Source: Candidatus Krumholzibacteriia bacterium
Lineage (GTDB): Bacteria > Krumholzibacteriota > Krumholzibacteriia > WVZY01 > JAKEHA01
Direction of reading: 5' to 3'
Assembly (NCBI GenBank): GCA_035762505.1
Contig: DASTOO010000146.1
Location: 1-32,453 of the forward strand
Length of the DNA stretch: 32,453 nucleotides
A program made the translations under genes and the position numbers. The notes beneath the pieces were generated by a model. It saw only the letters and a list, made by a program, of their open reading frames with translations. It was not told the origin of the DNA and made no database searches. Of the stretch, positions 11,981-32,453 are shown piece after piece; the first letter of the stretch is position 1; each line of letters opens with the position of its first letter.

Positions 11981-12415
11981 CGGGCGAGCCTCCTAGTCTT
12001 GAATTTGCCCGCGGGGGGCGAAACCGTTGCCGGCCATATTGCCCCATAACTCGTGACAGGTCAAGGGGTTTTTGGCGGCGTCTCCGAAACGCAACGCCCC
12101 GCCTCATTGTGAGAGGCGGCGCACGGTGCGACGCGCCACCATGGGGATGATCCGGGACGTTCGCGCGCCGGGCAGCCCTCCTGCGTTTCCGCGGAAGACG
12201 AGGCACGGGAGAGAAAGCGGCGTCCTCATGCGGCCGTACGCGCATTGGTACGTCAGTTGCTGAACGAAGCAACCGTGCTGCGGGGTAGTCGCCGCACAAG
12301 CATCTGTTGTACGTAGTTCACCGCACTGCCCCGCAGCCATGAGCAATCGCAAGCAAGCAGGAGACGCGATCGGATGACCGCACCGTGTCGCGCCCAGATT
12401 GAGGAGGCACTCATC

Positions 12416-12850
12416 ATGGCGTTTCGCAAGCACATTACGCTCGCGTTCGCGCTGCTCGCCCTGACCGCGATGCTCGCCGGCTGCGCCGATGAAACCGTCG
12501 CACCGGTCGAGCAGAACGAAGCGCCGGTGCTGGCGCCGACGAACGTGCAGGCCGAGATCGTGAACGGCGGCGACATCCGCGTCAGTTGGACTCCAAGCTC
12601 CCAGGCGAACGTGCGTGGTTACAACGTGTATCGTTTCGATCGCGAGAACAGCGCGATCGCGCGTCTCAATCCCGACGTGATCGGGGAAGCGTCCTACACG
12701 GACGGCGGGGCGGCATTCGCCCGCGAGTACGAGTACCGCGTGACCTCGGTCAGCACCAAGAACGCGGAGAGCAACTACGCGGCGGTCGTGATCACGAACC
12801 GCACGCCCGTCCCCAATCGCAGGGGACAGGATCCCGACGAGCAGAACTAG
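12416..12850 (+). CDS. Lipoprotein with a fibronectin type III-like domain
   Basis: Start moved to ATG 12416 (GGAGG about 9 nt upstream): MAFRKHITLAFALLALTAMLAGC (lipobox LAGC). FN3-like segment: PTNVQAEIV..IRVSWTPS..VRGYNVYR..EYEYRVTSV. Confidence 0.75.
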   Translation: MAFRKHITLAFALLALTAMLAGCADETVAPVEQNEAPVLAPTNVQAEIVNGGDIRVSWTPSSQANVRGYNVYRFDRENSAIARLNPDVIGEASYTDGGAAFAREYEYRVTSVSTKNAESNYAAVVITNRTPVPNRRGQDPDEQN

Positions 12851-20819: not shown

Positions 20820-20834
20820 TGGCATGGAACTTGC
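20820..20834 (+). promoter_or_regulatory. Near-consensus sigma-54 (-24/-12) promoter upstream of the FHA/phosphatase/kinase operon
   Basis: TGGCATGGAACTTGC versus the consensus TGGCAC-N5-TTGC. The only deviation is C to T at base 6. GG at 20821-22, GC at 20833-34. It ends 59 nt upstream of the RBS-supported GTG 20893. Confidence 0.6.
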
Positions 20835-20892: not shown

Positions 20893-22272
20893 GTGAAGAT
20901 CACGATTCCACATACGAAGCAAATCGGCGAGAGCGGCGAGGTCACCCGGGCCACGCTCAACGATCTCATGCGCGCCACCATCGACGCGAGCACGGCGAAG
21001 CCCTGCGTCCTCGAGATCTACGACAGCCTCAGCCAGCGCTTTCTCTTCGTGCGTGAGCGTCAGATCTATGCGGCGGCGGAGCTGAACGGCGGTGCGTTCG
21101 CCGCCACGTCGATCCGCGACTTCCTCCTCGGCGCGACCAACATGAGCTTTCCCCGCGCCACGTGGTACGAACTCAACACCAAGATCATCCACTCCGTCCT
21201 GGTGGTGGCGCAGAAGAAGCCCGCGTTGCGCGTCATGACGTCGCTCGTCGACCTGGATGAGCTGCTCGACCGCATCGAGAAGGAAGGCAAGAGCTGCATC
21301 GTCGCGGCGACGCGCGAGGACTTCCTCGCCATGCTCCGCTACGAGAAGGGCAAGACGGCGGCGTTCTGCTGGGAGCAGTCCATCACCGCGCCGCGCGAGG
21401 CGTCGTTCCGCGAGGACTTTCTCATCAAGGTCTACTCGAACGCGGCCGAGCGCCCCATGAACGTCAGCCTGTACGAGGACTTCCTCGTCTCCTACGCGCC
21501 GGACGCCAAGAACCTCCCCGAGAGCTTCAACGGGCGCTTCGCCGACGTATTCCTCTCCAAGCCGCCGGTCGTGATCCTGCGCTTCAAGGACCGCGAAATC
21601 GGGCGCTGGGAGATGGACCGGCCGCGCCTGCGCATCGGCCGCACCCCGGACAACGACATCGTGATCGACAACCTCGGCGTCTCGCGCCTGCACGCGGTCA
21701 TCGAGGAAGAGAAGGGCGCGTACTCGGTCCGCGACTGCGACAGCCTGAACGGCACCGTGGTCAACGGCGAGCGCACCCCCCACCAGACGCTGCAGGACGG
21801 CGACGAGATCTCCATCGGCAAGCACACGATCGTGTTCCGCGTGCCCAGCGGCCACGCGATACCGGAGCCGGAGACGATCGCCGGCTTCGACCAGACGATG
21901 ATCATCTCGCGCAGCTCCGTGTCGCACACCAACAAGACGCAGGAGGCGCCGGCCATGCAGGCCCGGGCGTCCGCCCCGACGCGCGAGCGGACCCCGCGCC
22001 TCGTCATCCACACCGATTACGGCGACCGCGTGGTCGAGATCGCCGACGAGGCGGTCACCATCGGTCGCGACGAGGACGCGGATGTGCGGGTGAACGGCAT
22101 GTTCGTCGCTTCCCGGCACGCCGAGATCACGCGGGAGAACGGCCGCGTGGTGCTGCGCCGCGTGGGCGGGATGCGCGCGGTCAAGGTGCGCGGCCGGTCG
22201 GTCAAGGAAGTGGAGCTCAAGGACAACGACGAGATCCAGATCGCGAGCGAGTTGTTCGTATTTCACGAGTAG
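20893..22272 (+). CDS. Dual FHA-domain protein with an uncharacterised ~230-aa N-terminal domain
   Basis: GTG 20893 has GAGGAAGG 7-8 nt upstream. The track ATG at 20824 lies inside the sigma-54 motif. FHA1: LRIGRTPDNDIVIDNLGVSRLHAVI..NGTVVNGER..ISIGKHTIVF. FHA2: VTIGRDEDADVRVNGMFVASRHAEI..DEIQIASELFVF. Confidence 0.85.
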   Translation: MKITIPHTKQIGESGEVTRATLNDLMRATIDASTAKPCVLEIYDSLSQRFLFVRERQIYAAAELNGGAFAATSIRDFLLGATNMSFPRATWYELNTKIIHSVLVVAQKKPALRVMTSLVDLDELLDRIEKEGKSCIVAATREDFLAMLRYEKGKTAAFCWEQSITAPREASFREDFLIKVYSNAAERPMNVSLYEDFLVSYAPDAKNLPESFNGRFADVFLSKPPVVILRFKDREIGRWEMDRPRLRIGRTPDNDIVIDNLGVSRLHAVIEEEKGAYSVRDCDSLNGTVVNGERTPHQTLQDGDEISIGKHTIVFRVPSGHAIPEPETIAGFDQTMIISRSSVSHTNKTQEAPAMQARASAPTRERTPRLVIHTDYGDRVVEIADEAVTIGRDEDADVRVNGMFVASRHAEITRENGRVVLRRVGGMRAVKVRGRSVKEVELKDNDEIQIASELFVFHE

Positions 22273-22288
22273 AGCGTGGAGGCACCGA

Positions 22289-23020
22289 ATGCGCTACGTC
22301 CTGATGTCAGACATCCACGGGAACCTTGAAGCTCTGCAGGCCGCGCTCGAGGCGGCGCGCCGCTTCGAGCCATACCACCTCATGTGTCTCGGCGACTTCG
22401 TGGGATACGGCGCGGATCCCGAGCCGTGCATCGAGCTGGCCGGCGACAAGGCGAACCTCATGCTCGCCGGCAACCACGACCTGGCGGTATCGGGGATCAT
22501 CTCCACCGACGACTTCAATACCATCGCGCGGGAGTCCATCGACTGGACGCGCGAGCAGCTCACCGCGGAGGATCGCGAGCTGCTCTCGAACCTTCCGCTC
22601 CAGTACATCGACGGCGACTACTGCTACACGCACGCCTCCCCCATCGACCCGATCCGGTTCATGTACATCCGGACTCTCGAGGACGTGGCGGAGGTGTTCG
22701 CGAGCATCGGCCAACGCTTCTGCTTCGTGGGGCATACGCACCTGCCGGTGCTGGTGGCGATGAACACCCGCCAGGGCCGCATGGAGGTCGTGCGCGACGC
22801 GCGCATCACCGTCGCGGACCACTGCCGCTACTTCGTCAACGTGGGCTCCATCGGACAGCCGCGCGACTCCAACCCGGACGCGTGCCTGGTCGTCCTGGAC
22901 GAGGAGGCCGGCTCGCTGGAGTTCATCCGCGTCCCCTACGACGTCTCCAAGTCGCAGGGAAAGATTCTGTCCAACGGTCTTCCGTCCTATCTGGCGGAGC
23001 GTCTCGTGCTGGCGAGGTAG
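22289..23020 (+). CDS. Metallophosphoesterase (calcineurin-like; probable Ser/Thr phosphoprotein phosphatase by context)
   Basis: MRYVLMSDIHGN, CLGDFVGYG, AGNHD, VGHTH, NVGSIGQPRD motifs. GGAGG 7 nt upstream of the ATG. Confidence 0.85.
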   Translation: MRYVLMSDIHGNLEALQAALEAARRFEPYHLMCLGDFVGYGADPEPCIELAGDKANLMLAGNHDLAVSGIISTDDFNTIARESIDWTREQLTAEDRELLSNLPLQYIDGDYCYTHASPIDPIRFMYIRTLEDVAEVFASIGQRFCFVGHTHLPVLVAMNTRQGRMEVVRDARITVADHCRYFVNVGSIGQPRDSNPDACLVVLDEEAGSLEFIRVPYDVSKSQGKILSNGLPSYLAERLVLAR

Positions 23021-23038
23021 TGCGTAGGGGGTGCGGCA

Positions 23039-24874
23039 GTGACTGACGGACTGAACTACAAGATCATTCAAACCGTCGCGTCCGGCGGGACGGCGGTGCT
23101 CTACAAGGCCATCCAGCTCTCACTGGACCGGGTGGTGGCCATCAAGCGCCTCCACCAGCACCTCACCACCGACGACAACTTCACGCGCCGTTTCGTGCTG
23201 GAAGCCAGGGCGGCCGCGTCGCTCGACCACGAGAACATCGTCCGCGTGATCGACTTCGGCGTCGAGAAGGACTGCTACCAGATGGTGATGGAGTTCATCG
23301 AGGGCGAGAGCCTGCGCGATGTGCTCGAGCGCTGGCGGCCCATCAACCCCGAAATCGCCCTCGCCCTCACGCACCAGGTCTGCCGCGGGCTCGAACACGC
23401 GCACGCCAAGGGCATCGTCCACCGCGACATCAAGCCGGGCAACGTGATGCTCACCAAGACGGGCGGCGTGAAAATCGCCGATTTCGGCCTCGCCAAGTTG
23501 ACGCAGGGCAGCTCGATGCACACGGCCGTGGACACGATCCTCGGGACGCCGCTCTACATGTCGCCCGAACAGGCCTTCGGCGAGAGCGTCGATCAGCGCA
23601 GCGACCTCTTCTCGCTCGGAACGATGCTGTATGAGCTCCTCACGGGGAAGCAGCCGTTCGCGAGCGAGAACTACATGGGCGTCATCCAGAACATCCTCAA
23701 GAAGGAGATCCCCGGCATCCGCGAGCTCAACCCCGCGGTGCCGCTGGCGGCGGAGGAGATCACGGCCAAGGCGCTCGCGCGCAATCGCGAGGAGCGCTTC
23801 CAGTCGGCACGCGCGTTCCGCGAGTCCATCGAGCAGGCGCTGGGCCTCGAGGGCCTGAACCGCGCGCTCGCGGCGATTCCGATGCTGCTCGACCGCAACA
23901 GTCTTTCGCGCGGGCTGTCGCTCGCCCCCACCCCGATGGCGCAAACCGGCATCAACCCGCGCAAGTCGCGCAGTTCCGCCATGGCCCGCCGGAAGTCGAA
24001 ACGACCGGTGTGGACCACGGTGAGCCTGTTGGCGGCGGTGGCCTGCGCCGCGGTGGCGTACTTCCAGTTCGGCCCCGGCACGATCCCGGGGCTGACGGCG
24101 GACGCGCCGGTCACCGGCCGCGTCCAGAATTCCGTCATGGGTGACGAATGGAGCGCCGACCTGTTCGGCGCCGCCGACATCCCGAAGGCGCCGGCGAGTG
24201 CGGCGGACACGGGCGCGACTGCACGGCCCGACACGGCGGCGGCGCGCGGGCCCGCACCCGTGGCGGGCGACACCGCGGGGAACCCGGCGCCGGCCATGCC
24301 GTGGGTCGACCCTTCCGCGAAGCCGCAGGAAAAGCCCAACGAGCAACCGGTCAACCCGGCTCCGGCCGAGGTTGCCTCCGAGCCCGCGCCAAAGCCCACG
24401 GAGGCGACGCCCGCCAGGACGCAGACCGAGGAGCCGGAACGCTTTCGCGAGGGCTACCTGCTCGTGGACGTGGAACCGTCGGGGCAGGTGTACGTGAACG
24501 GGGTCTACCGGGGACTCGCCAACCCGACGCTGCGGCTCACCCTCAACGCCGGGTTGCACTCCGTCGAGTGCCGCAGCGACAAGTTCGAGCCGTACGCGGA
24601 ATCGTTGCGCATCACCGCCGGAGAAACGTCGAAGCGGACGGTGATTCTCAAGAAGCTCAAGGGAATCATCAGCCTCGCCACGACGGAAGGAGCCGAGTTG
24701 TACATCGACGGCGCGCTCATCGGCGTCACGCCCATCATGCGCCCCATCGAAGTCGACGCGGGGACGCACACGCTCACCATCAAGAAGGAGAACCACTTCA
24801 CGTGGTCATCCGAGGTGACCGTCGAGCCGAACGTCACCCTGCCGCTCCGCATCACGCTGAGCCCGCGCTACTAG
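23039..24874 (+). CDS. Receptor-type Ser/Thr protein kinase: kinase domain, TM helix, Pro/Ala-rich linker, two PEGA domains
   Basis: VAIKRL, HRDIKPGNVML, DFGLAKL, GTPLYMSPEQ. TM segment VWTTVSLLAAVACAAVAYF. C-terminal YLLVDVEPSGQVYVNG.. and ELYIDGALIGVTP.. (PEGA-like). GTG start. Confidence 0.9.
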   Translation: MTDGLNYKIIQTVASGGTAVLYKAIQLSLDRVVAIKRLHQHLTTDDNFTRRFVLEARAAASLDHENIVRVIDFGVEKDCYQMVMEFIEGESLRDVLERWRPINPEIALALTHQVCRGLEHAHAKGIVHRDIKPGNVMLTKTGGVKIADFGLAKLTQGSSMHTAVDTILGTPLYMSPEQAFGESVDQRSDLFSLGTMLYELLTGKQPFASENYMGVIQNILKKEIPGIRELNPAVPLAAEEITAKALARNREERFQSARAFRESIEQALGLEGLNRALAAIPMLLDRNSLSRGLSLAPTPMAQTGINPRKSRSSAMARRKSKRPVWTTVSLLAAVACAAVAYFQFGPGTIPGLTADAPVTGRVQNSVMGDEWSADLFGAADIPKAPASAADTGATARPDTAAARGPAPVAGDTAGNPAPAMPWVDPSAKPQEKPNEQPVNPAPAEVASEPAPKPTEATPARTQTEEPERFREGYLLVDVEPSGQVYVNGVYRGLANPTLRLTLNAGLHSVECRSDKFEPYAESLRITAGETSKRTVILKKLKGIISLATTEGAELYIDGALIGVTPIMRPIEVDAGTHTLTIKKENHFTWSSEVTVEPNVTLPLRITLSPRY

Positions 24875-25983
24875 CCCGTCGCACGCGCATCCAGGAGCCG
24901 CGCCGCTTCCGCCACCACCTCGTCCGCGCCGAGCGACAGCAGCCGCCCCCCCGGCGACCGCACGATATGCAGCCCCTCGCAGCGCGGCGCCCATCGAAAG
25001 GGGTCGGTCGGGCCGAACACCGCCAGCACCCGCGCCTGCGCGGCGGCCGCGACGTGCATCACCCCGGTGTCATTGCACAGCACGAGGTCCGCCCGCCGCA
25101 GGAGCGCCGCCACGTCCAGGATGGGCCGGCCACGGAACACGGTACCCTTGACACTGCAGGCGGACTGAAACGCGCCCACCGACGCGGCGTCGGCGGGGCC
25201 TTCGATCACCGCGAGGGTCACGTCGCGCTCACTTGCCAGGTCGTCCACCACCCGCGCCCATCGCTCCGGCGGCCAGATGTTCTCCGCCTTGCCCGCGCCG
25301 GGGTGCACCGCGAGGCGCACCGTTCCGTCCTTCCAGCACGCGGCCGCCGCATCCTCCGCCCAGCGTTCGCTCCCGGGGCCGGGCACGAGCAGCGGCGCGA
25401 TATCGGCGGTCGTGATGCCGACCGCGCGCAGCGGGTGGAGGTTGTGCTCCGCCTCGTTCATGGTTGCGAGCTCGGTGTCCGAGGGGAGCGGCAGCGTCAG
25501 GTTGAGGTAGCTGCCGGTGAGGGATTCGCCCACGCGCGCCGACGTGGAGCCGATGCGCACGCGCGCGCCCGAGAGGACGGCGAGAACGACGCTGGTGAAG
25601 GAGAACGACACCGTGTGCAGCACGATGGCAAGGTCGAAGCGGCGGGCGCGCAGCTTCCGGACCAGCCCGGGCGAGCGGGCCGGGCTCTTCTTGTCGTACG
25701 TGTAGATGTCGTCCACGTACGGACTGTTGGCAAGGACACCGCGGTTCAGCGTCGACGAGACGACGCCGATGCGGGCGGACGGGAAGGTTTCACGGATGGC
25801 GCGGAAGGCCGGGATCGCGAGCATCATGTCGCCCATCTGGTTGTGCTGGCGAATGACGAGGATGCGCTCGAAGCGCATCGCGCGAAACTGCTCCGCCGTG
25901 ATGGGCCGCGCGCGCAACGCGCGTCCGACGCCGGCCATGAGCGCGCGTTTCCCGGAGCGTTCGAGCGTCTTCACGCGTCCCAT
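24871..25983 (-). CDS. Glycosyltransferase family 9 (heptosyltransferase-like)
   Basis: ILVIRQHNQMGDMMLAIPAFRAI and LVLCNDTGVMHVAAA..VLAVFGPTDP. Start moved to ATG 25983 (MGRVKT), 4 nt after the rsgA stop, rather than the overlapping 26049. Confidence 0.85.
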   Translation of the reverse strand: MGRVKTLERSGKRALMAGVGRALRARPITAEQFRAMRFERILVIRQHNQMGDMMLAIPAFRAIRETFPSARIGVVSSTLNRGVLANSPYVDDIYTYDKKSPARSPGLVRKLRARRFDLAIVLHTVSFSFTSVVLAVLSGARVRIGSTSARVGESLTGSYLNLTLPLPSDTELATMNEAEHNLHPLRAVGITTADIAPLLVPGPGSERWAEDAAAACWKDGTVRLAVHPGAGKAENIWPPERWARVVDDLASERDVTLAVIEGPADAASVGAFQSACSVKGTVFRGRPILDVAALLRRADLVLCNDTGVMHVAAAAQARVLAVFGPTDPFRWAPRCEGLHIVRSPGGRLLSLGADEVVAEAARLLDARATG

Positions 25984-25987
25984 GCGC

Positions 25988-26929
25988 TCACCACTGCTTG
26001 TTGGCCGCGCGCTCGCGCAGATCGCGCACGATCTCGACATAGCTCGCAAAGCGCGCCGCGTCGATCGCTCCCGTCTCCACCGCCGCCTTCACCGCGCAGG
26101 ACGGTTCGTGGGTGTGGCTGCAGGGGTCGAAGCGGCAGCGCGTCTCCATGCGCACGATCTCCGGGAAGCACTCCGCGACGCCGTCCGGGTCGTCCCCGGG
26201 AAACTGGAAGGTCTGCATGCCCGGCGTGTCGGCGAGAAAGCCTTTGCGGAAGGGAAAGAGCTGCGAATACGCCGTGGTGTGCCGGCCACGGCCGGTCCGC
26301 TCGCCCACCTCGCGCACGTCCAGGTCGAGTGCGGGGTCCAGGCGGTTGAGGAGGGAGCTCTTCCCCACGCCCGACTCGCCGACGAAGGCGTAGACCCCCT
26401 GCCCGACGAGCGCCGCCAGCGCGTCCACGCCGCTGCCGCTGGCCGCGCAGGTCTCGAACACGTCGTAGCCCGCGCCCTCGTAGACCGAACGGAATGCCGC
26501 CACCTCGCCCTTTCCCCCCATGTCGGTCTTGTTGAGCACGACGACCGCGGGCGCATGGCCCCATTCGGCGGCGGCGAGTATGCGGTTGAGAAACTCGGGG
26601 TGCGGCGGGGGCTCGCCGAGCGACGCCACCACGAAGAGCCGCTCCACGTTCGCGACGATGAGCCGGCTCCCGCGGCCCCTGTCCGCGTGGCGCGAGAGCC
26701 ACGACGCGCGCGGGAGCACCTTCTCCAGCGCAACGCTCCCCGACGGCTCGCGCCGGACCTCCACCCGGTCGCCGGCCACCACCTGCAGGGATTTTTCCTT
26801 CACCCGGAAGCGGCCCCGGAGCGAGCAGGCGACCACGGTCGCCCCGATCCGGACCCAGACATCCCCTCCGGTCACCCGGATGACGAGGGCATTTTCGACG
26901 CGATCTTGCATGGAATCGTCGCTGCTCAT
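25988..26929 (-). CDS. rsgA: Ribosome small-subunit-dependent GTPase A
   Basis: Circularly permuted GTPase motifs VLNKTDM, then GESGVGKSSLLN and DTPGMQ. C-terminal zinc knuckle CRFDPCSHTHEPSC. The start at ATG 26929 (MSSDDS) is tentative; 26911 and 27001 are alternatives. Confidence 0.85.
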   Translation of the reverse strand: MSSDDSMQDRVENALVIRVTGGDVWVRIGATVVACSLRGRFRVKEKSLQVVAGDRVEVRREPSGSVALEKVLPRASWLSRHADRGRGSRLIVANVERLFVVASLGEPPPHPEFLNRILAAAEWGHAPAVVVLNKTDMGGKGEVAAFRSVYEGAGYDVFETCAASGSGVDALAALVGQGVYAFVGESGVGKSSLLNRLDPALDLDVREVGERTGRGRHTTAYSQLFPFRKGFLADTPGMQTFQFPGDDPDGVAECFPEIVRMETRCRFDPCSHTHEPSCAVKAAVETGAIDAARFASYVEIVRDLRERAANKQW

Positions 26930-26960
26930 GCGGGTGGCCGCCCGGCTCGCAGAATTGGTA

Positions 26961-26989
26961 TTGAGGATAAGCCGCGAATCTGGTAATTT
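26961..26989 (+). promoter_or_regulatory. Promoter candidate for the PtsN-like / zinc-ribbon gene pair
   Basis: TTGAGG (26961-66), a 17-nt spacer ending in TGg, then TAATTT (26984-89). The same bases can also be read as a weak sigma-54 element, TGGTAATTTCCAAGC (26981-95, GG-N10-GC). Confidence 0.35.
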
Positions 26990-27029
26990 CCAAGCGTTCA
27001 TTCACTTGGCGTCCGCCGACGCCCGATCC

Positions 27030-27512
27030 ATGGCCACACCAGTGATGACGTCCCAAGAGCTCGCTTCATACTTCAGAGACCCTCTTTGCATCTTCGACCT
27101 GAAGGCGACGACCAAGCGCGACGCGCTGGCCGAGCTGGTCGAAGCGGTGTGCGCCGATCGTGACATCCGGGACCGTGGCCTGATTCTCGAAATGCTGCTC
27201 AACCGCGAAAGCCTGGGCAGCACCGCCATCGGCAAAGGCGTCGCGTTTCCGCACGGCCGCACGCTCGCGGTGCGCGAGCTCTCCATCGCCTTCGGGCGCT
27301 CCGTTTCCGGCGTCGACTTCGATTCCATCGACAAGCAGCCGACACACGTGTTCTTCCTCATCATCGCCCCCCCGCAGGACCGCGATAATCTGTACCTGCA
27401 GGTTCTCGGCCGCGTCGTCGACCTCATCAAGGACGATGCCGCGCGCGGGCGCATCATGGGCGCATCGAGCGTCGGAGAACTGAAATCCATCGTCGAAGGG
27501 CAGGGCTTGTGA
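27030..27512 (+). CDS. ptsN: PTS EIIA type-2 domain protein (PtsN / EIIA-Ntr-like)
   Basis: In-frame C-terminal part of track ORF 26520..27512, starting at ATG 27030. LNRESLGSTAIGKGVAFPHGR (phospho-His context) and HVFFLIIAP. About 160 aa, typical of a stand-alone EIIA-Ntr. Confidence 0.8.
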   Translation: MATPVMTSQELASYFRDPLCIFDLKATTKRDALAELVEAVCADRDIRDRGLILEMLLNRESLGSTAIGKGVAFPHGRTLAVRELSIAFGRSVSGVDFDSIDKQPTHVFFLIIAPPQDRDNLYLQVLGRVVDLIKDDAARGRIMGASSVGELKSIVEGQGL

Positions 27513-27868
27513 GCGATCTTCCGGCAAAAAAGCAGGACCAGGCGCGACTCCTGGTCGCACTACAGGACATCGACCACATGATCAAGGAAGCGGAGGACAC
27601 CAAGACCTCCGCGAAGTTTCAGGAAATGGGCTTTCCGCTCGACGGAATCCTCGAGTTGAAGAAGGCCCGCGAAGAAATCGCCGCAAACGTCAAACCCCAG
27701 CTCCTCAACCGGTATCAGCGCGTCTCGAAGAACTACGAACGCTCGGTCGTTCCCGTGGTCGGCGAGTTGTGCACGGGCTGCTTCGCCAAGGTGCCGACGT
27801 CCTTCCGCTACGAGAAGAACGCCGTCGTGGCCTGCGAGAACTGCGGCCGCATTCTCTACTTCACGTAG
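27509..27868 (+). CDS. Short C4 zinc-ribbon protein of the DUF164/COG1579 (HP0958-like) type
   Basis: The GTG start overlaps the ptsN-like TGA (GTGA). Coiled-coil-like N-terminus, then VVPVVGELCTGCFAKVP....VVACENCGRILYF, matching the C..C...C..CGRILY ending I associate with this family. Confidence 0.8.
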   Translation: MSDLPAKKQDQARLLVALQDIDHMIKEAEDTKTSAKFQEMGFPLDGILELKKAREEIAANVKPQLLNRYQRVSKNYERSVVPVVGELCTGCFAKVPTSFRYEKNAVVACENCGRILYFT

Positions 27869-27907
27869 TCTCTCACTATACGTGTGGCCGCGCGGCAGTT
27901 GTCCGTG

Positions 27908-28008
27908 GCAGCGGTGTGCGGTCTGCGCAACGTCCTCGCGTGAACGACGAAGTGGCCGGCAAGTCCCAGCATTTGCTGCGGATTGTTGCTCAGACCGCAC
28001 ACCGCTGC
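27908..28008. repeat. Long inverted repeat forming a ~100-nt hairpin (function unknown; ncRNA or regulatory candidate)
   Basis: 18-bp perfect inverted repeat: GCAGCGGTGTGCGGTCTG (27908-27925) pairs with CAGACCGCACACCGCTGC (27991-28008). After one mismatch it extends by 5-6 more pairs (27927-32 with 27984-89). Confidence 0.6.
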
Positions 28009-28129
28009 TCCCGGGCGCCGTTCCGCGCGGGTGGCGGTCAGCGGGCGCCCGTGCGGGCGAGCCATTTATCGCGAAGGCGGAAACTGGCGAGACCGCGACG
28101 GGCTGCTGACCGACAGGACCCGCGCGGCA

Positions 28130-28169
28130 ATCAACCCGGCTGGTAGAGTGAAACGTGATCAACCGGGCT
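28130..28169 (+). promoter_or_regulatory. Direct repeat pair abutting the -35 of the EBP promoter (operator candidate)
   Basis: ATCAACCCGGCT (28130-41) and ATCAACCGGGCT (28158-69) share 11 of 12 bases and start 28 nt apart. The second copy ends at the first T of the TTGCTT -35 hexamer. Confidence 0.3.
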
Positions 28170-28196
28170 TGCTTTTCGGCCGTACTCTGGTAAAAT
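28169..28196 (+). promoter_or_regulatory. Sigma-70-type promoter with extended -10 for the enhancer-binding protein gene
   Basis: TTGCTT (28169-74), a 16-nt spacer ending in TGg, then TAAAAT (28191-96), in the only AT-rich patch of the spacer. The leader to ATG 28277 is about 70 nt. Confidence 0.5.
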
Positions 28197-28276
28197 AATT
28201 TTACTTTTCGTCCGCAAGGTATTGTTTCTTGCCCGTCTTGCCCGCTTGCCGGGGCCATACGGACGTGGGAGCGGCC

Positions 28277-31200
28277 ATGGAGTCTTCCGTTCGAACCTTC
28301 CGTCGCAATCTCGAGCCCATCGAGGAGGAGCGGGTTGCGGGCGCCTGGCGCGTGGCCGGGCACGTCGACCTGGTCAGCGAGCGCAGGTTCCTCGTGGCCT
28401 GGGCGGCGACCGACGCCGCCGGAAGAACCGACGCGAACGTGCTCACCTTTCGGTGTGACGCCGCCATGGCGATCGCGCCGGATGCTTGTCTCCCCGCGCT
28501 CGACATCACCACCGGCAATGGCCGCGCCGAGATTCTCACCTCCTTCGCCCGGCGGCTGGATGACAACGAGTGGTCGAACGGTGACATCGAGCGCGCGCTG
28601 CTCTCCCTGATCGATACCCTGGATCGCCTAGACGCCCACGCGTTCCACGCCGTGCATCTCAACGCCGATCTCGTCGGGCTCGACGAGACGAGTGCGCTCG
28701 TCGTTTTCCCGGCCGCGTACGCGTTTCCGCCGGATGCCGCCGACCCGGCGCGCGCCGGGCTGGATGCGAGGGCGATCTCACGCGCGGCGCATGTGCATAC
28801 CCTCGCGAGCGTGGCGAAGACGCTGGCGCCGCACGCCACGGGCGCGTTCGCGGACCGGCTGCGCAGGCTCGTCGCCGCCATCGCGGCGGGCTCGGTCGCG
28901 GGCGCGGCCCAGGCACGAACGTTACTCGCCGCCGAGACGAACGCCGCCCCGACCCCGGCGGCGCCCGCGCGCAAGCGGGACGACATCCCTTTCGACACGG
29001 CCGGCGCCCTGCGCGCGATCGCGGAGTCGAAGCCGGTGGAGGTCGCGGGACCCGCCGGCAGCGGCCGCACGGCCGTGCTCGAACGCTTCGCTGCGGAAGC
29101 ACGGCGAGCCGGCATCGACCCGCACTGGCTGGACGAGTGGGAGATCCCGGGCACCCCGCGCAAGCGCGGCGCCGGCCGCGAGGCGGGGCGCGGTACGGTG
29201 TGGATCGTCGACGACGCGGACGAGCGCCCGCTCCTGCATGCGTTCGTGCTGGACCACGCCGCCGAACTGGAGCGGCGGCCCGGCGCGGGGCTCGTGATCG
29301 CCACGCGGTCCGACGACCGGCCCAGCGCCTTCATGGCGCTCCTGCGCTCGCGCAGCCCGCACGGCGTGTTCACCGCGACTCTCCCGCCCGCGCGCAGCGA
29401 CGACCCGCGCGCCGCCGCGCTGGACACGCTGGAACCGGACGCGCGCCAGGCGCTCGAGCTGGTCGCGGTGGCCGATTGTCCGCTGCCCATCGACGTGGTG
29501 CTCTCGGTGTATCCGGGCACGGACCGGGCGGTGCACCGGCACATCTTCGCCCTGGCCGGCGCCGACCTCGTCGCCATCGAGTCGCGTCGTCTCGCCGCCG
29601 GCAGCGCGACCCTCCTCGTCTCCGTTCCCAGCGCGTCGCTGCGCCGCCTGATCCGCGACCGCATTCCGGAATCGCGCCGGCGCAACCTGCACCGCACCAT
29701 CGCGCGCATCGCCGACGAACGCGGCTCGTTCGCCCCCATGTTCGTTTACCAGCATCTCCTGGGCGCCGGCGAAGGACGCGACGCCGCTGCGCGCGCGGCG
29801 GCCTTCGTCCGCGAGGCGACGCGCCCGCAGCGCGCGCCATTCATCGAGAGCATCGTGCGCGACGTGATCGAGAGCGGCCTCGACCGCAGCCTCGCCTACG
29901 GCGACCGCATGACGCTCCTCGTCCGCGTCGGCGACGATCTGCTCGCCCGCGGCAGGCAGAAGGAGGCCGAAGCGCTCCTCGTCCGCGCCCGCGCCATCCG
30001 CGCCAGCGGCGACGACGTCCGCGCCAAAGCCCCGCTCGCGGGCGAGGCGATGCGGCTCCTGGCCGACGCGTGGGCCGCGCGCGGGCAGCTGCGCGAGGCG
30101 CTCGAGCTGCTCGAGGATACGCGCGAGGATATTGCGCCCTACCTGAGTCTCGCGGAGCAGGCCCGGCTGCTGAACGACATCGGCTGGTTCCAGTACCGCC
30201 TCGGCGACTATTCGAGTTGCGTGGACTCGTGCAAGTTCACGATCAACACGCTGAACCCGAACGAACACCCGCTGGTGGTCGCCCAGGCGCTGAACCTGAT
30301 GGGCGTCATCGCCTTCAACACGAGCCGTTACGACGAGGCGGTTTCTTACTACGAGCAGAGCGCGTTCCTGCGCGAGCGCGAGAAAGACCTCAACGCGCTC
30401 GCCGGCTCCTACAACAACCTGGCGCTGGCGTACCAGTCCAAGGGCGAATACGACAAGGCGCTCGGCTATCTCCACAAGAGCATCGAGATCAAGAGCCGCC
30501 AGAACAACGAAGCGGGCATCGCGGGCGGCTACCTGAACCTCGCGTTCCTCTACCTGGAGGTGCACAACTTCGACGAGGCGGAGCGGCGTTGCCGCGAGAG
30601 CCTGCGCATCAGCTCCGAGCTGGGACTCGCGCAGCTCATCGCCGAGAACCTCAACACCCTCGGCGACATCGTGTTCGCGCGCGGCCGCCTGGACGACGCC
30701 GAGCGCTACTACCGCGATTCCCTCGGCAACGCGCGGCGGCTTTCCACCGTGAACGAGGAGATGGGCGCGCAGAAGCGCCTCGCCAAGCTGTACATCCGCA
30801 AGGGCCGTCCCGAGGACGCGCGTGCCGCCATCGACGAGGCCTCGCGTCTCGCCGCCCAGATCGGATCGAAGTACGAGCAGGCGCAGACCGAGGAGATCTA
30901 CGGCGACCTGAGCGTCTCGGAGGGCGTGCACGGCGCGGCACTGGATCATTTCGAGAAGGCCGCGACGGCGTACGCGACCCTCTCCAAGCTCCGCCTCGCG
31001 GCGGCGTCCCTGGCCAAGGCGGGGATCGCGCACGCGAAGAACAGCAACCCGCTCGACGCGAAACGATACCTGGACCGCGCGCAGGACCTCATGAAGTCGC
31101 AGATCGGTCACGAGATTCCCGAAGAGATCGTGACCCTGCAGCAGACTCTGCGCGAGAGCCCGCTGCCCACCGCGGTGTCGGGCACGGCGTCGCAGAAGCT

Positions 31201-32453
31201 CATGTACGCGTTCAACGAGCTTTCCTCCCTCTCCGACTACGCCGACGACAAGGGCGCGTTCTTCCGCCGCATCATCGAGGTCTTCCAGAGCCTGCTCGGC
31301 GCCGCGCAATGCACGCTCGCGTTGCGGACCGAGGACGGCTTCGTGGGGTTGAACGCCGCCGGCGAGGAGCAGCCCATCGCGGACCCGATCATGCAGGGGG
31401 TGTTCGCGCGCGCCCTGCAGCTGGGCATGGTCATGCACTGCGGCTCACCGGAGATCAAGGACATCCTCGCGCGCGGACCGAAACCCGACCCGGCCATCCG
31501 GCTCGTGATCGTGCCGATGAAGTCGATGGGAAAGGAACTGGGGTGCATGCTCCTCACCGTGCCGCCCGCGTCGGTTCCCGCGACGCGGGAGGACGTGGAC
31601 TTCATCACCTGCATCGGACGGCACGTGGCCGGCGGTCTGCGGCTGAGCCTCCACTTCGACGAGCGTTCGAGCACCGAGCAGCGTTTCGAGCGCGACCTCG
31701 ACGGCCTCGTGTCGCCGGCCGCGGACGCGAACCGTTTCCAGACGCTCATCGGGCGCGACGAGTCCATGAAGAAGGTCTTCCGCGTGATCGACAAGATCAA
31801 GGACATGGACACGGGCATTCTCATCTTCGGGGAGAGCGGCACCGGCAAGACGGAGATCGCGCGCACCATTCACAACACGAGCCTGCGGCGGCGTCACGTG
31901 TTTCAGTCGATCCACTGCGCGGAGATCCCGACCAGTCTCCTCGAGAGCGAGCTCTTCGGCCACGAGCGCGGCGCTTTCACCGGCGCGGTGCAGCGCAAGC
32001 TCGGCCGCTGCGAGATCGCGGACGGCGGCACCGTGTTCCTGGACGACGTCAACGTGATGCCGCTGGACACGCAGGCGAAGCTCCTCCACTACCTGGAGAA
32101 CAAGAGCTTCACGCGCCTGGGGGGCACGCAGAAGATCACGACCGACGTGCGCCTCATCGCGGCCAGCAACGAGGACCTCGAGCGGCTGGTGAAGGAGAAC
32201 CGCTTCCGCGAGGACCTCTACTACCGGCTGAAGGTCAACCAGATCGAGCTGCCGCCGCTGCGGGATCGCCAGGACGACATGATCCTGATCGCCCAGGAGT
32301 TCATCAAGAAGCGCTGTCACCAGCAGGAGAAGCCGTTGAAGCGGCTCTCCTCGGAGACGATCAAGCTGTTCCAGAAATACCGCTGGCCGGGGAACGTGCG
32401 CGAGCTGCAGAACGTGCTCGAACAAATCGTGCTCCTGTGCGACGATGACATCG
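28277..32453 (+). CDS. Giant sigma-54-dependent transcriptional activator (EBP): N-terminal unknown/kinase-like region, P-loop NTPase (STAND-like), TPR array, GAF-like domain, sigma-54 AAA+ domain; partial (3' end beyond window)
   Basis: Own translation. ATG 28277 has GGGAG 5 nt upstream. The frame is open from 28199 to the window end and is absent from the ORF track. [10 protein letters not shown] and VWIVDDADE; TPRs ([27 protein letters not shown]..); then [45 protein letters not shown]. Confidence 0.9.

Follow-up and report, generated by a model that had tools for sequence, protein, structure and literature searches.

The locus described here raises the question of whether three neighboring genes, each from a family linked to sigma-54, form a single regulatory module. 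It lies in a 32,453-nt stretch of contig DASTOO010000146.1 (assembly GCA_035762505.1, Candidatus Krumholzibacteriia bacterium), hereafter the window, and comprises a gene for a stand-alone PtsN-like EIIA protein of the phosphotransferase system (PTS), a gene for a 119-aa zinc-ribbon protein related to DUF164/COG1579, and a very large gene for a sigma-54 activator (enhancer-binding protein, EBP). A first-pass annotation, made from the DNA letters, had grouped the three genes as a module that tunes sigma-54 availability or the activity of the EBP. Its three family assignments (PTS_EIIA_2, DUF164, and Sigma54_activat) all proved correct when checked by profile. The large gene also lies where it had been placed, about 400 bp downstream, with its ATG at 28277, 408 nt past the zinc-ribbon stop, and its GESGTGKT and GAFTGA motifs at 31829 and 31970. 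The grouping itself divides. We find that the EIIA and zinc-ribbon genes are a fixed evolutionary unit, maintained across several phyla through changing flanks, and that the EBP is a lineage-specific neighbor outside this core module.

The window has a G+C content of 67%, and its closest relatives are metagenome-assembled genomes labeled Candidatus Krumholzibacteria. Pfam annotation of the entire window returned housekeeping and signaling genes; rpoN, HPr, and EI were all absent, in agreement with the earlier remark that rpoN is missing beside these genes. A search of one genome per GTDB species with patterns from the zinc-ribbon family confirmed at least 513 loci. Neighborhoods were counted in 90 loci, consisting of 10 metagenome loci and the best 80 of these species loci. 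The best 80 carry the labels Krumholzibacteriota, Latescibacterota, Eisenbacteria, Gemmatimonadota, KSB1, Calditrichota, Zixibacteria, Zhuqueibacter, and others, many taxon labels of genome records being automatic.

In 90 of 90 loci, the EIIA gene is the direct upstream neighbor of the zinc-ribbon gene and shares its strand. In 84 of 84 loci, the EIIA stop and the zinc-ribbon start are separated by -32 to +13 nt; 25 of these loci have a 4-nt overlap and 12 a 1-nt overlap. The window itself has the GTGA overlap that the first-pass annotation had read, in which the GTG start of the zinc-ribbon gene runs into the TGA stop of the EIIA gene. The flanks of the pair vary: upstream, either a divergent rsgA gene (31 loci) or a ManC gene followed by a gene for a protein of about 86 aa (20 loci) is found, and downstream the EBP, a convergent aminotransferase gene, a ClpX-like ATPase gene, or another gene. 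An exhaustive search also recovered six protein clusters (P0260 and P0271-P0275; 270-276 aa) that are natural fusions of the two proteins, with GFGKGIAIPH in the N-terminal part and CxxC...CxxCGKILY in the C-terminal part. One fusion gene is monocistronic and adjoins an extracytoplasmic function (ECF) sigma operon, with no EBP nearby. From the universal adjacency through rearrangements, the translational coupling, and these "Rosetta stone" fusions we infer a physical complex, and the two proteins very probably make up one unit, physically and functionally. Our full-text literature search found no paper linking DUF164, COG1579, or PF02591 to EIIA or PtsN; the pair is previously undescribed and widely conserved.

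The protein of about 86 aa found upstream in 20 loci has the motif (V/L)RYEKGDFxGG and no Pfam match (L051:9252-9512, L060:9265-9543, L082:9230-9490, and 17 further loci). Its gene stands directly upstream of the EIIA gene, on the same strand, after the ManC-like gene, and several of the 20 loci are labeled KSB1 or Calditrichota. It may be a third operon member in those lineages.

The EIIA protein matches PF00359 (PTS_EIIA_2) with an E-value of 9.4e-26 and 91 bits against a gathering cut-off of 27; the query was the 160-aa translation from 27030, and the match spans residues 18-155. An alignment of six related loci places the true start at the ATG at 27045, giving a protein of 155 aa. The phosphorylatable His sits in GVAFPHGR, as had been noted, and aligns to GVAIPHGR of PtsN structures. 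The PH pair is conserved in at least 90% of 66 paired or fused EIIAs, as is the motif RE..ST..G.G.A.PH. Among solved structures, four PtsN proteins match best (E 3e-15 to 7e-13), with EIIA-Mtl at 5e-5, and homologues carry the JGI annotation "Ntr-type" or "nitrogen regulatory IIA". The protein scores below the NCBIfam PtsN equivalog cut-offs (TIGR01419, 65.7 vs 138.7 bits; NF008145, 56.5 vs 221) and lies outside any rpoN operon, yet its best structure matches are PtsN, and so the right label on sequence grounds is "PtsN-like".

EIIA fusions of a second type, about 270 aa long, were also observed (P0279, P0281, P0286, P0294, and P0302), one member of which is labeled Cloacimonadota. These five were rejected as EIIA/zinc-ribbon fusions because their C-terminal domain differs and has no zinc ribbon. 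EIIA-Ntr-like proteins of these phyla seem prone to fusion with partner domains.

The zinc-ribbon protein ends in ...CTGC...CENCGRILYFT, as the first-pass annotation had it, and its cysteines C88, C91, C109, and C112 form two CxxC pairs that are invariant in 29 sequences. By itself it scores 27.0 bits against PF02591, just below the gathering cut-off of 29.1, and most of its homologues have a precomputed PF02591 match. A profile built from 29 homologues (alignment A1) and run against all PDB chains ranked CT398 first (E 1e-8) and HP0958 second (E 3e-6). Compared by hhalign with 16 full-length DUF164 proteins, residues 45-119 align to positions 158-236 with 99.8% probability and an E-value of 5e-29. 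The CdsZ equivalog model (NF047363) gave 35.2 vs 275 bits, with only positions 159-232 of its 251 matched. In the AlphaFold2 model, for which the predicted local distance difference test score (pLDDT) is 73, helices at 6-39 and 46-75 are followed by the zinc ribbon. Foldseek comparison of this model with the PDB returned 4ilo (E 7e-5), 3na7 (7e-4), and then 5y05 and 5y06, which correspond to CT398, HP0958, and two MSMEG_4306 entries; the TM-scores are low (0.33-0.35 of the query) because the proteins differ in size and the model is of moderate confidence. Three motifs are kept, namely LxxLQxxDxxI at the start of helix 1, PxLLxRYxR at the end of helix 2, and the C4 zinc ribbon, and about 125 residues of the coiled-coil hairpin are missing while its zinc-ribbon-proximal base is retained. 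The protein thus looks like a DUF164 protein minus the middle of the hairpin, in line with the earlier description of a half-length protein that has lost most of its coiled coil, and we refer to it as mini-DUF164.

A protein of about half the usual length whose PF02591 score falls slightly under the cut-off could also be a truncated, decaying remnant of a full-length DUF164 gene that came to lie beside the EIIA and EBP genes by chance. The conservation data rule this out. There are 195 homologues, the 120 of them that were listed span 96-127 aa, and 36 columns are invariant when 29 are aligned. In an exhaustive search with a hidden Markov model (HMM), the short form comprises about 100 clusters at 50% identity with members of 110-125 aa, and full-length DUF164 matches (222-274 aa) emerge only from an E-value of about 1e-12. 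The gene has a third-position G+C content (GC3) of 0.83, and its constant adjacency to the EIIA gene and the existence of fusions are likewise at odds with decay. We therefore reject the pseudogene reading, to which we give next to no probability, and assign the 119-aa protein, by its sequence relationships, as a real, conserved short member of DUF164/COG1579. The failure to match DUF164/COG1579 models that would have refuted the first-pass annotation was thus not observed.

The EBP shows a different distribution. It follows the zinc-ribbon gene in about 25 loci, all from one Krumholzibacteria clade (L001-L021, L025, L028, L033, L036, and L037), and is not beside the pair in about 60 of the best 80 species loci, which include other Krumholzibacteriota and all other phyla. 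The recurrence of the trio in related genomes expected by the first-pass annotation therefore holds within this clade and fails beyond it. Within the clade, the entire 20-kb block from the FHA gene to NIF3 is syntenic, so that the adjacency of the EBP carries no independent weight. A NIF3/DUF34 gene comes directly after the EBP in these loci (e.g., L007:14945-15709). NIF3 is the classical neighbor of full-length DUF164 genes (PMC8469502, PMC3372290), and COG1579 is described as the commonest NIF3 neighbor (2021 review, PMC8469502). A classical NIF3-DUF164 operon was considered for this locus and rejected, as it is only in the EBP clade that NIF3 lies close to the zinc-ribbon gene, and there it comes after the EBP. 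The zinc-ribbon/EBP/NIF3 order may be a relic of the NIF3-DUF164 linkage with the EBP in between.

Each of the two units appears to have its own control region. The promoters reported here rest on phylogenetic footprints and not on a consensus scan; a promoter and terminator scan of positions 26800-28500 found no consensus sigma-70 promoter and no terminator on the plus strand. Upstream of the EIIA gene, TTGAG-ATA...TCTG-TA-TTTTCCA is kept in six loci and the remaining intergenic sequence is not (alignment A4), which points to a promoter of the EIIA/zinc-ribbon operon. Position 26961, at which the first-pass annotation began its EIIA region, is in fact the first base of the putative -35 box. 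Upstream of the EBP lies a perfect, AT-rich 15-bp palindrome, GTAAAATAATTTTAC (28190-28204), which overlaps a -10 box, occurs as a single copy in the window, and constitutes the main invariant feature of an alignment of eight loci (A9). It is present once per locus in 25 of 26 EBP-clade loci (the exception being L037), next to the EBP start and 29-93 nt upstream of it where the gene was called. The palindrome persists in loci where the EBP N-terminus is just 13-17% identical. This conservation suggests that 28169-28204 acts as a promoter or operator of the EBP, with GTAAAATAATTTTAC as a candidate operator, possibly for autoregulation. In the window, a 280-nt insert further separates the EBP from the pair.

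How the pair works can be proposed by analogy. The EIIA and mini-DUF164 proteins would form a 1:1 complex, and a regulatory PTS would set the phosphorylation state of EIIA, which would be passed to whatever the zinc-ribbon base docks on. By homology, the docking target would be the beta-prime subunit of RNA polymerase or sigma-54. HP0958 protects RpoN from turnover, and its zinc ribbon is needed (PMC3372290). AlphaFold3 models place the zinc ribbon of ML1638 and CT398 on the beta-prime shelf/jaw and the coiled-coil tip at the sigma site (bioRxiv 10.64898/2026.07.15.738315). The mini protein would thus keep the anchor and lose the coiled-coil tip, with EIIA replacing the tip as the effector head. 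That the pair acts on RNA polymerase or sigma-54 at all is possible and at present doubtful. The fuller proposal, in which the mini-DUF164 adaptor of FCB-group candidate phyla docks a PtsN-like EIIA on RNA polymerase or sigma-54 and PTS phosphorylation gates sigma-54-dependent or general transcription, is put forward tentatively and is somewhat less probable again.

Several observations weigh against this proposal. The role of the pair in transcription or at sigma-54 is drawn entirely from homology, and the sigma-54 link that the first-pass annotation saw in the zinc-ribbon protein has the kinship with HP0958 in its favor, whereas the coiled-coil tip modeled to touch sigma-54 is the very part deleted here. 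The classical sigma-54 context that had been invoked is also lacking: no rpoN (as an open reading frame (ORF) with an RpoN box), HPr, or EI gene was found in the window or in 92 loci with flanks of up to 10 kb. The AlphaFold2 model of a natural fusion has a pLDDT of 91.8 and a predicted template modeling score (pTM) of 0.69 that is suggestive at best of EIIA/mini-DUF164 binding. The search that gave the 80 species loci used for the counts started from the zinc-ribbon protein, and these loci are the closest of the at least 513. Since no terminator was found, read-through from the zinc-ribbon gene into the EBP gene is possible. No enhancer site linking the EBP to its proposed target promoter (see below) was identified. 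DUF164 proteins also occur in Actinobacteria, which are generally without sigma-54, and HP0958 and CT398 bind mRNA and secretion or flagellar export proteins as well, so that the pair could have another target.

The reading of the first-pass annotation, in which all three genes make one module and the pair tunes sigma-54 availability or controls the EBP directly, has to be set against these results. Its strongest support is that the gene order is the same in about 25 loci of the clade even though the zinc-ribbon proteins are as little as 44% identical and the EBP N-termini as little as 13-17%; the intergenic gap in relatives is only 90-180 nt, with no terminator found, and sigma-54 activators under PTS control are known from the LevR-type regulators of Firmicutes. 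The synteny of the FHA-NIF3 block removes the weight of the shared gene order, however, and the absence of the EBP beside the pair in most of the best 80 species loci, other Krumholzibacteriota included, the invariant promoter and palindrome of the EBP, and the fusion gene that has no EBP nearby all argue for separation. A three-part module is consequently unlikely, and direct control of the giant EBP by the pair is at least as improbable. What stands of the original grouping is the link between EIIA and the zinc-ribbon protein. We lean toward reading the region as two separate units, an EIIA/mini-DUF164 operon and a giant EBP with its own promoter and palindrome.

A further alternative accepts the complex and moves it away from transcription initiation, to RNA, the ribosome, or a secretion or export ATPase, or has the zinc ribbon regulate or sequester EIIA. 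Binding of mRNA and of FliH/CdsL is reported for HP0958 and CT398, JGI lists the zinc-ribbon family as "predicted nucleic acid-binding Zn-ribbon protein", and the gene divergent from the pair in 31 loci, rsgA, encodes a ribosome-assembly GTPase. The missing tip fits this alternative as well, and the mechanism of DUF164 proteins has been called "mysterious", with links to flagellin synthesis and type III secretion (PMC8469502). Against it, the rsgA adjacency is divergent and confined to some lineages, clustering and Pfam annotation of neighbor genes gave only housekeeping genes near the pair and no secretion or flagellar genes at any locus, and the retained zinc-ribbon base is the part modeled to anchor on beta-prime. 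We regard a role outside transcription initiation as fairly unlikely, a little below the adaptor proposal and above a module that includes the EBP.

Features of the window discussed in the text, with coordinates and the basis of each call (EBP residue numbers count from its ATG)
Feature	Nucleotides	Strand	Residues	Basis or remarks
Sigma-54-type promoter TGGCATGGAACTTGC, 58 nt upstream of FHA gene	20820-20834	+		Nine-locus alignment
FHA-metallophosphatase-Ser/Thr kinase operon	20893-24874	+		Pfam
FHA protein	20893-22272	+		Pfam; start codon set by comparison with L007
Metallophosphatase	22289-23020	+		Pfam; start codon set by comparison with L007
Ser/Thr kinase with PEGA domain	23039-24874	+		Pfam; start codon set by comparison with L007
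GT9 glycosyltransferase	24871-26049	-		
RsgA	25988-26929	-		
Putative sigma-70-type promoter of EIIA/zinc-ribbon operon	26961-26989	+		Footprint; -35 TTGAGG 26961-26966, 17-nt spacer ending TGG, -10 TAATTT 26984-26989
EIIA, PtsN-like, stand-alone	27045-27512	+	155 aa	PF00359; GVAFPHGR
GTGA overlap (zinc-ribbon GTG start, EIIA TGA stop)	27509-27512	+		Sequence
Mini-DUF164 (COG1579) zinc-ribbon protein	27509-27868	+	119 aa	Profiles, Foldseek, hhalign
Structured insert, 280 nt, between zinc-ribbon gene and EBP promoter	27869-28150	.		Comparison with relatives
Putative EBP promoter region	28169-28204	+		Footprint; TTGCTT 28169-28174, 16-nt spacer, TAAAAT 28191-28196, overlapping palindrome GTAAAATAATTTTAC
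Giant EBP	28277-32453 (window end)	+	1392 aa seen	PF00158
EBP N-terminal domain, weakly kinase-like			~1-250	
EBP degenerate P-loop GPAGSGRT	29048-29071		258-265	
EBP TPR	29906-30859		544-861	
EBP GAF, weak	31256-31630		994-1118	
EBP sigma-54 AAA+	31745-32245		1157-1323	GESGTGKT at 31829, GAFTGA at 31970

Of the EBP, put at about 1480 aa in full, 1392 aa are seen before the window end cuts it; orthologues measure 1470-1577 aa and have HTH_8 as their last domain. Its MESSVRTF start recurs in a relative that shares 94% identity in the zinc-ribbon protein. In the L007 orthologue, whose N-terminal 290 aa are 63% identical to those of the window EBP, HTH_8 matches with an E-value of 7.8e-5 (22.8 bits vs a cut-off of 22). 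The AAA+ domain of the window protein matches PF00158 (Sigma54_activat) over residues 1157-1323 with an E-value of 5.8e-63 and 212 bits. The TPR region gives MalT-like matches (PF17874, E 1.5e-14), and there are weak AAA_16/nSTAND matches. The N-terminal 250 aa have no Pfam match, and the only PDB sequence matches were to TPR repeats. Aligned by hhalign to Ser/Thr kinases, the N-terminus gives 31% probability and an E-value of 5e-4 over the catalytic core, in a topologically sensible way; the HRD and DFG motifs are absent. The domain is tentatively considered a pseudokinase. The degenerate P-loop GPAGSGRT is found in the window EBP and in its closest relatives, L007 and L011, and deeper relatives have GxGKS/T; with the Walker A lysine replaced, this sub-lineage appears to have lost nucleotide hydrolysis.

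A possible target of the EBP lies in the same window. A scan for TGGCAC-N5-TTGC with up to 2 mismatches returned 17 matches vs 29 expected, a bulk count that is meaningless in itself, and two one-mismatch sites were taken further. The first is upstream of the FHA-metallophosphatase-Ser/Thr kinase operon, where nine loci were aligned over 440 nt of intergenic sequence (A3) and TGGCAT-N5-TTGCCC is the sole multi-base block that stays invariant. Among the EBP-clade loci long enough to cover this region, nearly all have the block in front of the FHA gene, and in most of these it is the only match with at most 1 mismatch within about 10 kb of the EBP. Judging from this conservation, the operon is probably sigma-54-dependent, and its promoter, about 7 kb upstream, appears to be the most plausible target of the EBP, which would activate the FHA-phosphatase-kinase operon through it. 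Also conserved in this alignment is a minus-strand sigma-70 promoter, CTTGAC ... TATAAT, directed toward a divergent cold-shock gene annotated in related loci.

The second site, TGGTACGTCAGTTGC, is a sigma-54-like element at 12246-12260 (+), 57 nt upstream of a small fn3-domain ORF (12317-12850). In other loci, comparable proteins that measure about 145-190 aa and begin with a hydrophobic segment (neighbor cluster 8; e.g., L024, L026, L035, and L076) have TGGCAC-N5-TTGC upstream too, which suggests that the fn3-type small protein is a conserved member of a sigma-54 regulon. In an EBP-less clade, a strong TGGCAC-N5-TTGC precedes a protein of 85-125 aa with a hydrophobic N-terminal segment and no Pfam match (neighbor cluster 23; L072:8105-8408, L055:8058-8489, L032:4001-4438, and similar loci), about 1.4-1.9 kb upstream of the EIIA gene with rsgA between.

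The 280-nt insert that separates the zinc-ribbon gene from the EBP promoter is missing in relatives with 90-94% identity in the zinc-ribbon protein. It contains a 24-nt inverted repeat that is 96% complementary (27908-27931/27985-28008), nested in a second one, and its RNA fold z-scores are -6.05 on the plus strand and -6.44 on the minus strand. An Rfam scan of the whole window at gathering thresholds gave no match, the insert included, and no second copy of the insert was found in the window, the loci, or a metagenome scan. The metagenome scan with one 18-nt arm gave 48 single-arm matches, which proved by blastn to be chance matches of 19-22 nt and were set aside. The insert could be an insertion resembling a miniature inverted-repeat transposable element (MITE) or a structured RNA; it is strain-specific and outside the module.

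Two old puzzles meet at this locus, the genetic tie between ptsN and rpoN and the role of the DUF164/COG1579 zinc-ribbon proteins. A PtsN-like EIIA paired with, or fused to, a cut-down relative of HP0958 gives both a defined two-protein system. The pair occurs at a minimum of 513 GTDB species loci in several poorly studied phyla, and it would be a widespread regulatory device if the proposal is true. If the docking and gating reading is true, it would also provide a physical basis for the long-noted ptsN-rpoN association and a first mechanistic handle on DUF164. The first reading of the locus is corrected in that the giant EBP is lineage-specific, has its own putative control region, and likely targets the FHA-phosphatase-kinase operon.

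The closest known counterparts of the pair are PtsN and the classical DUF164 proteins. Like PtsN (EIIA-Ntr) of PTS-Ntr, the window EIIA is a stand-alone type 2 protein with a conserved phosphorylatable His, and its closest solved structures are from Neisseria, Burkholderia, and E. coli. Unlike proteobacterial PtsN, it lies outside an rpoN operon, with rpoN, hpf, rapZ-like, and HPr genes not nearby, and its fixed partner is a zinc-ribbon protein generally absent from PtsN-bearing Proteobacteria; DUF164 appears to be missing from Alpha-, Beta-, and Gammaproteobacteria (PMC3372290). The C-terminal 75 residues of mini-DUF164 are homologous to those of HP0958/FlgZ of H. pylori, CT398/CdsZ of C. trachomatis, and MSMEG_4306/ML1638 of mycobacteria, sharing the PxLLxRYxR helix end and the CxxC...CxxCGRILY ribbon, and the N-terminal LxxLQxxDxxI is common to them as well. 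The proteins differ in length (119 aa vs about 235-255 aa) and in context. Nearly all DUF164 members consist of a coiled coil and DUF164 without a further domain (PMC3372290), whereas mini-DUF164 is always paired with or fused to EIIA, an arrangement unreported for the family. It also does not follow a NIF3 gene as classical DUF164 genes do; NIF3 here comes after the EBP, in one clade only.

The EBP, for its part, resembles regulators that combine a kinase, a STAND P-loop, and TPR repeats (MalT-like and PknK-like), here fused to an NtrC-type AAA+ protein, as its TPR, AAA_16/nSTAND, GAF, Sigma54_activat, and HTH_8 matches indicate. It departs from them in an N-terminus without a Pfam match and in the replaced Walker A lysine (GSGRT) of its sub-lineage. 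The LevR-type sigma-54 activators of Firmicutes, which carry PRD and EIIA/EIIB-like domains and are controlled by the PTS, offer a conceptual parallel to the proposed coupling of PTS phosphorylation state to sigma-54-dependent transcription. In LevR, however, the PTS-receiving domains are in the EBP itself, whereas the window EBP has no PRD or EIIA domain, and the EIIA stands as a protein of its own whose partner is a DUF164 relative and not the EBP.

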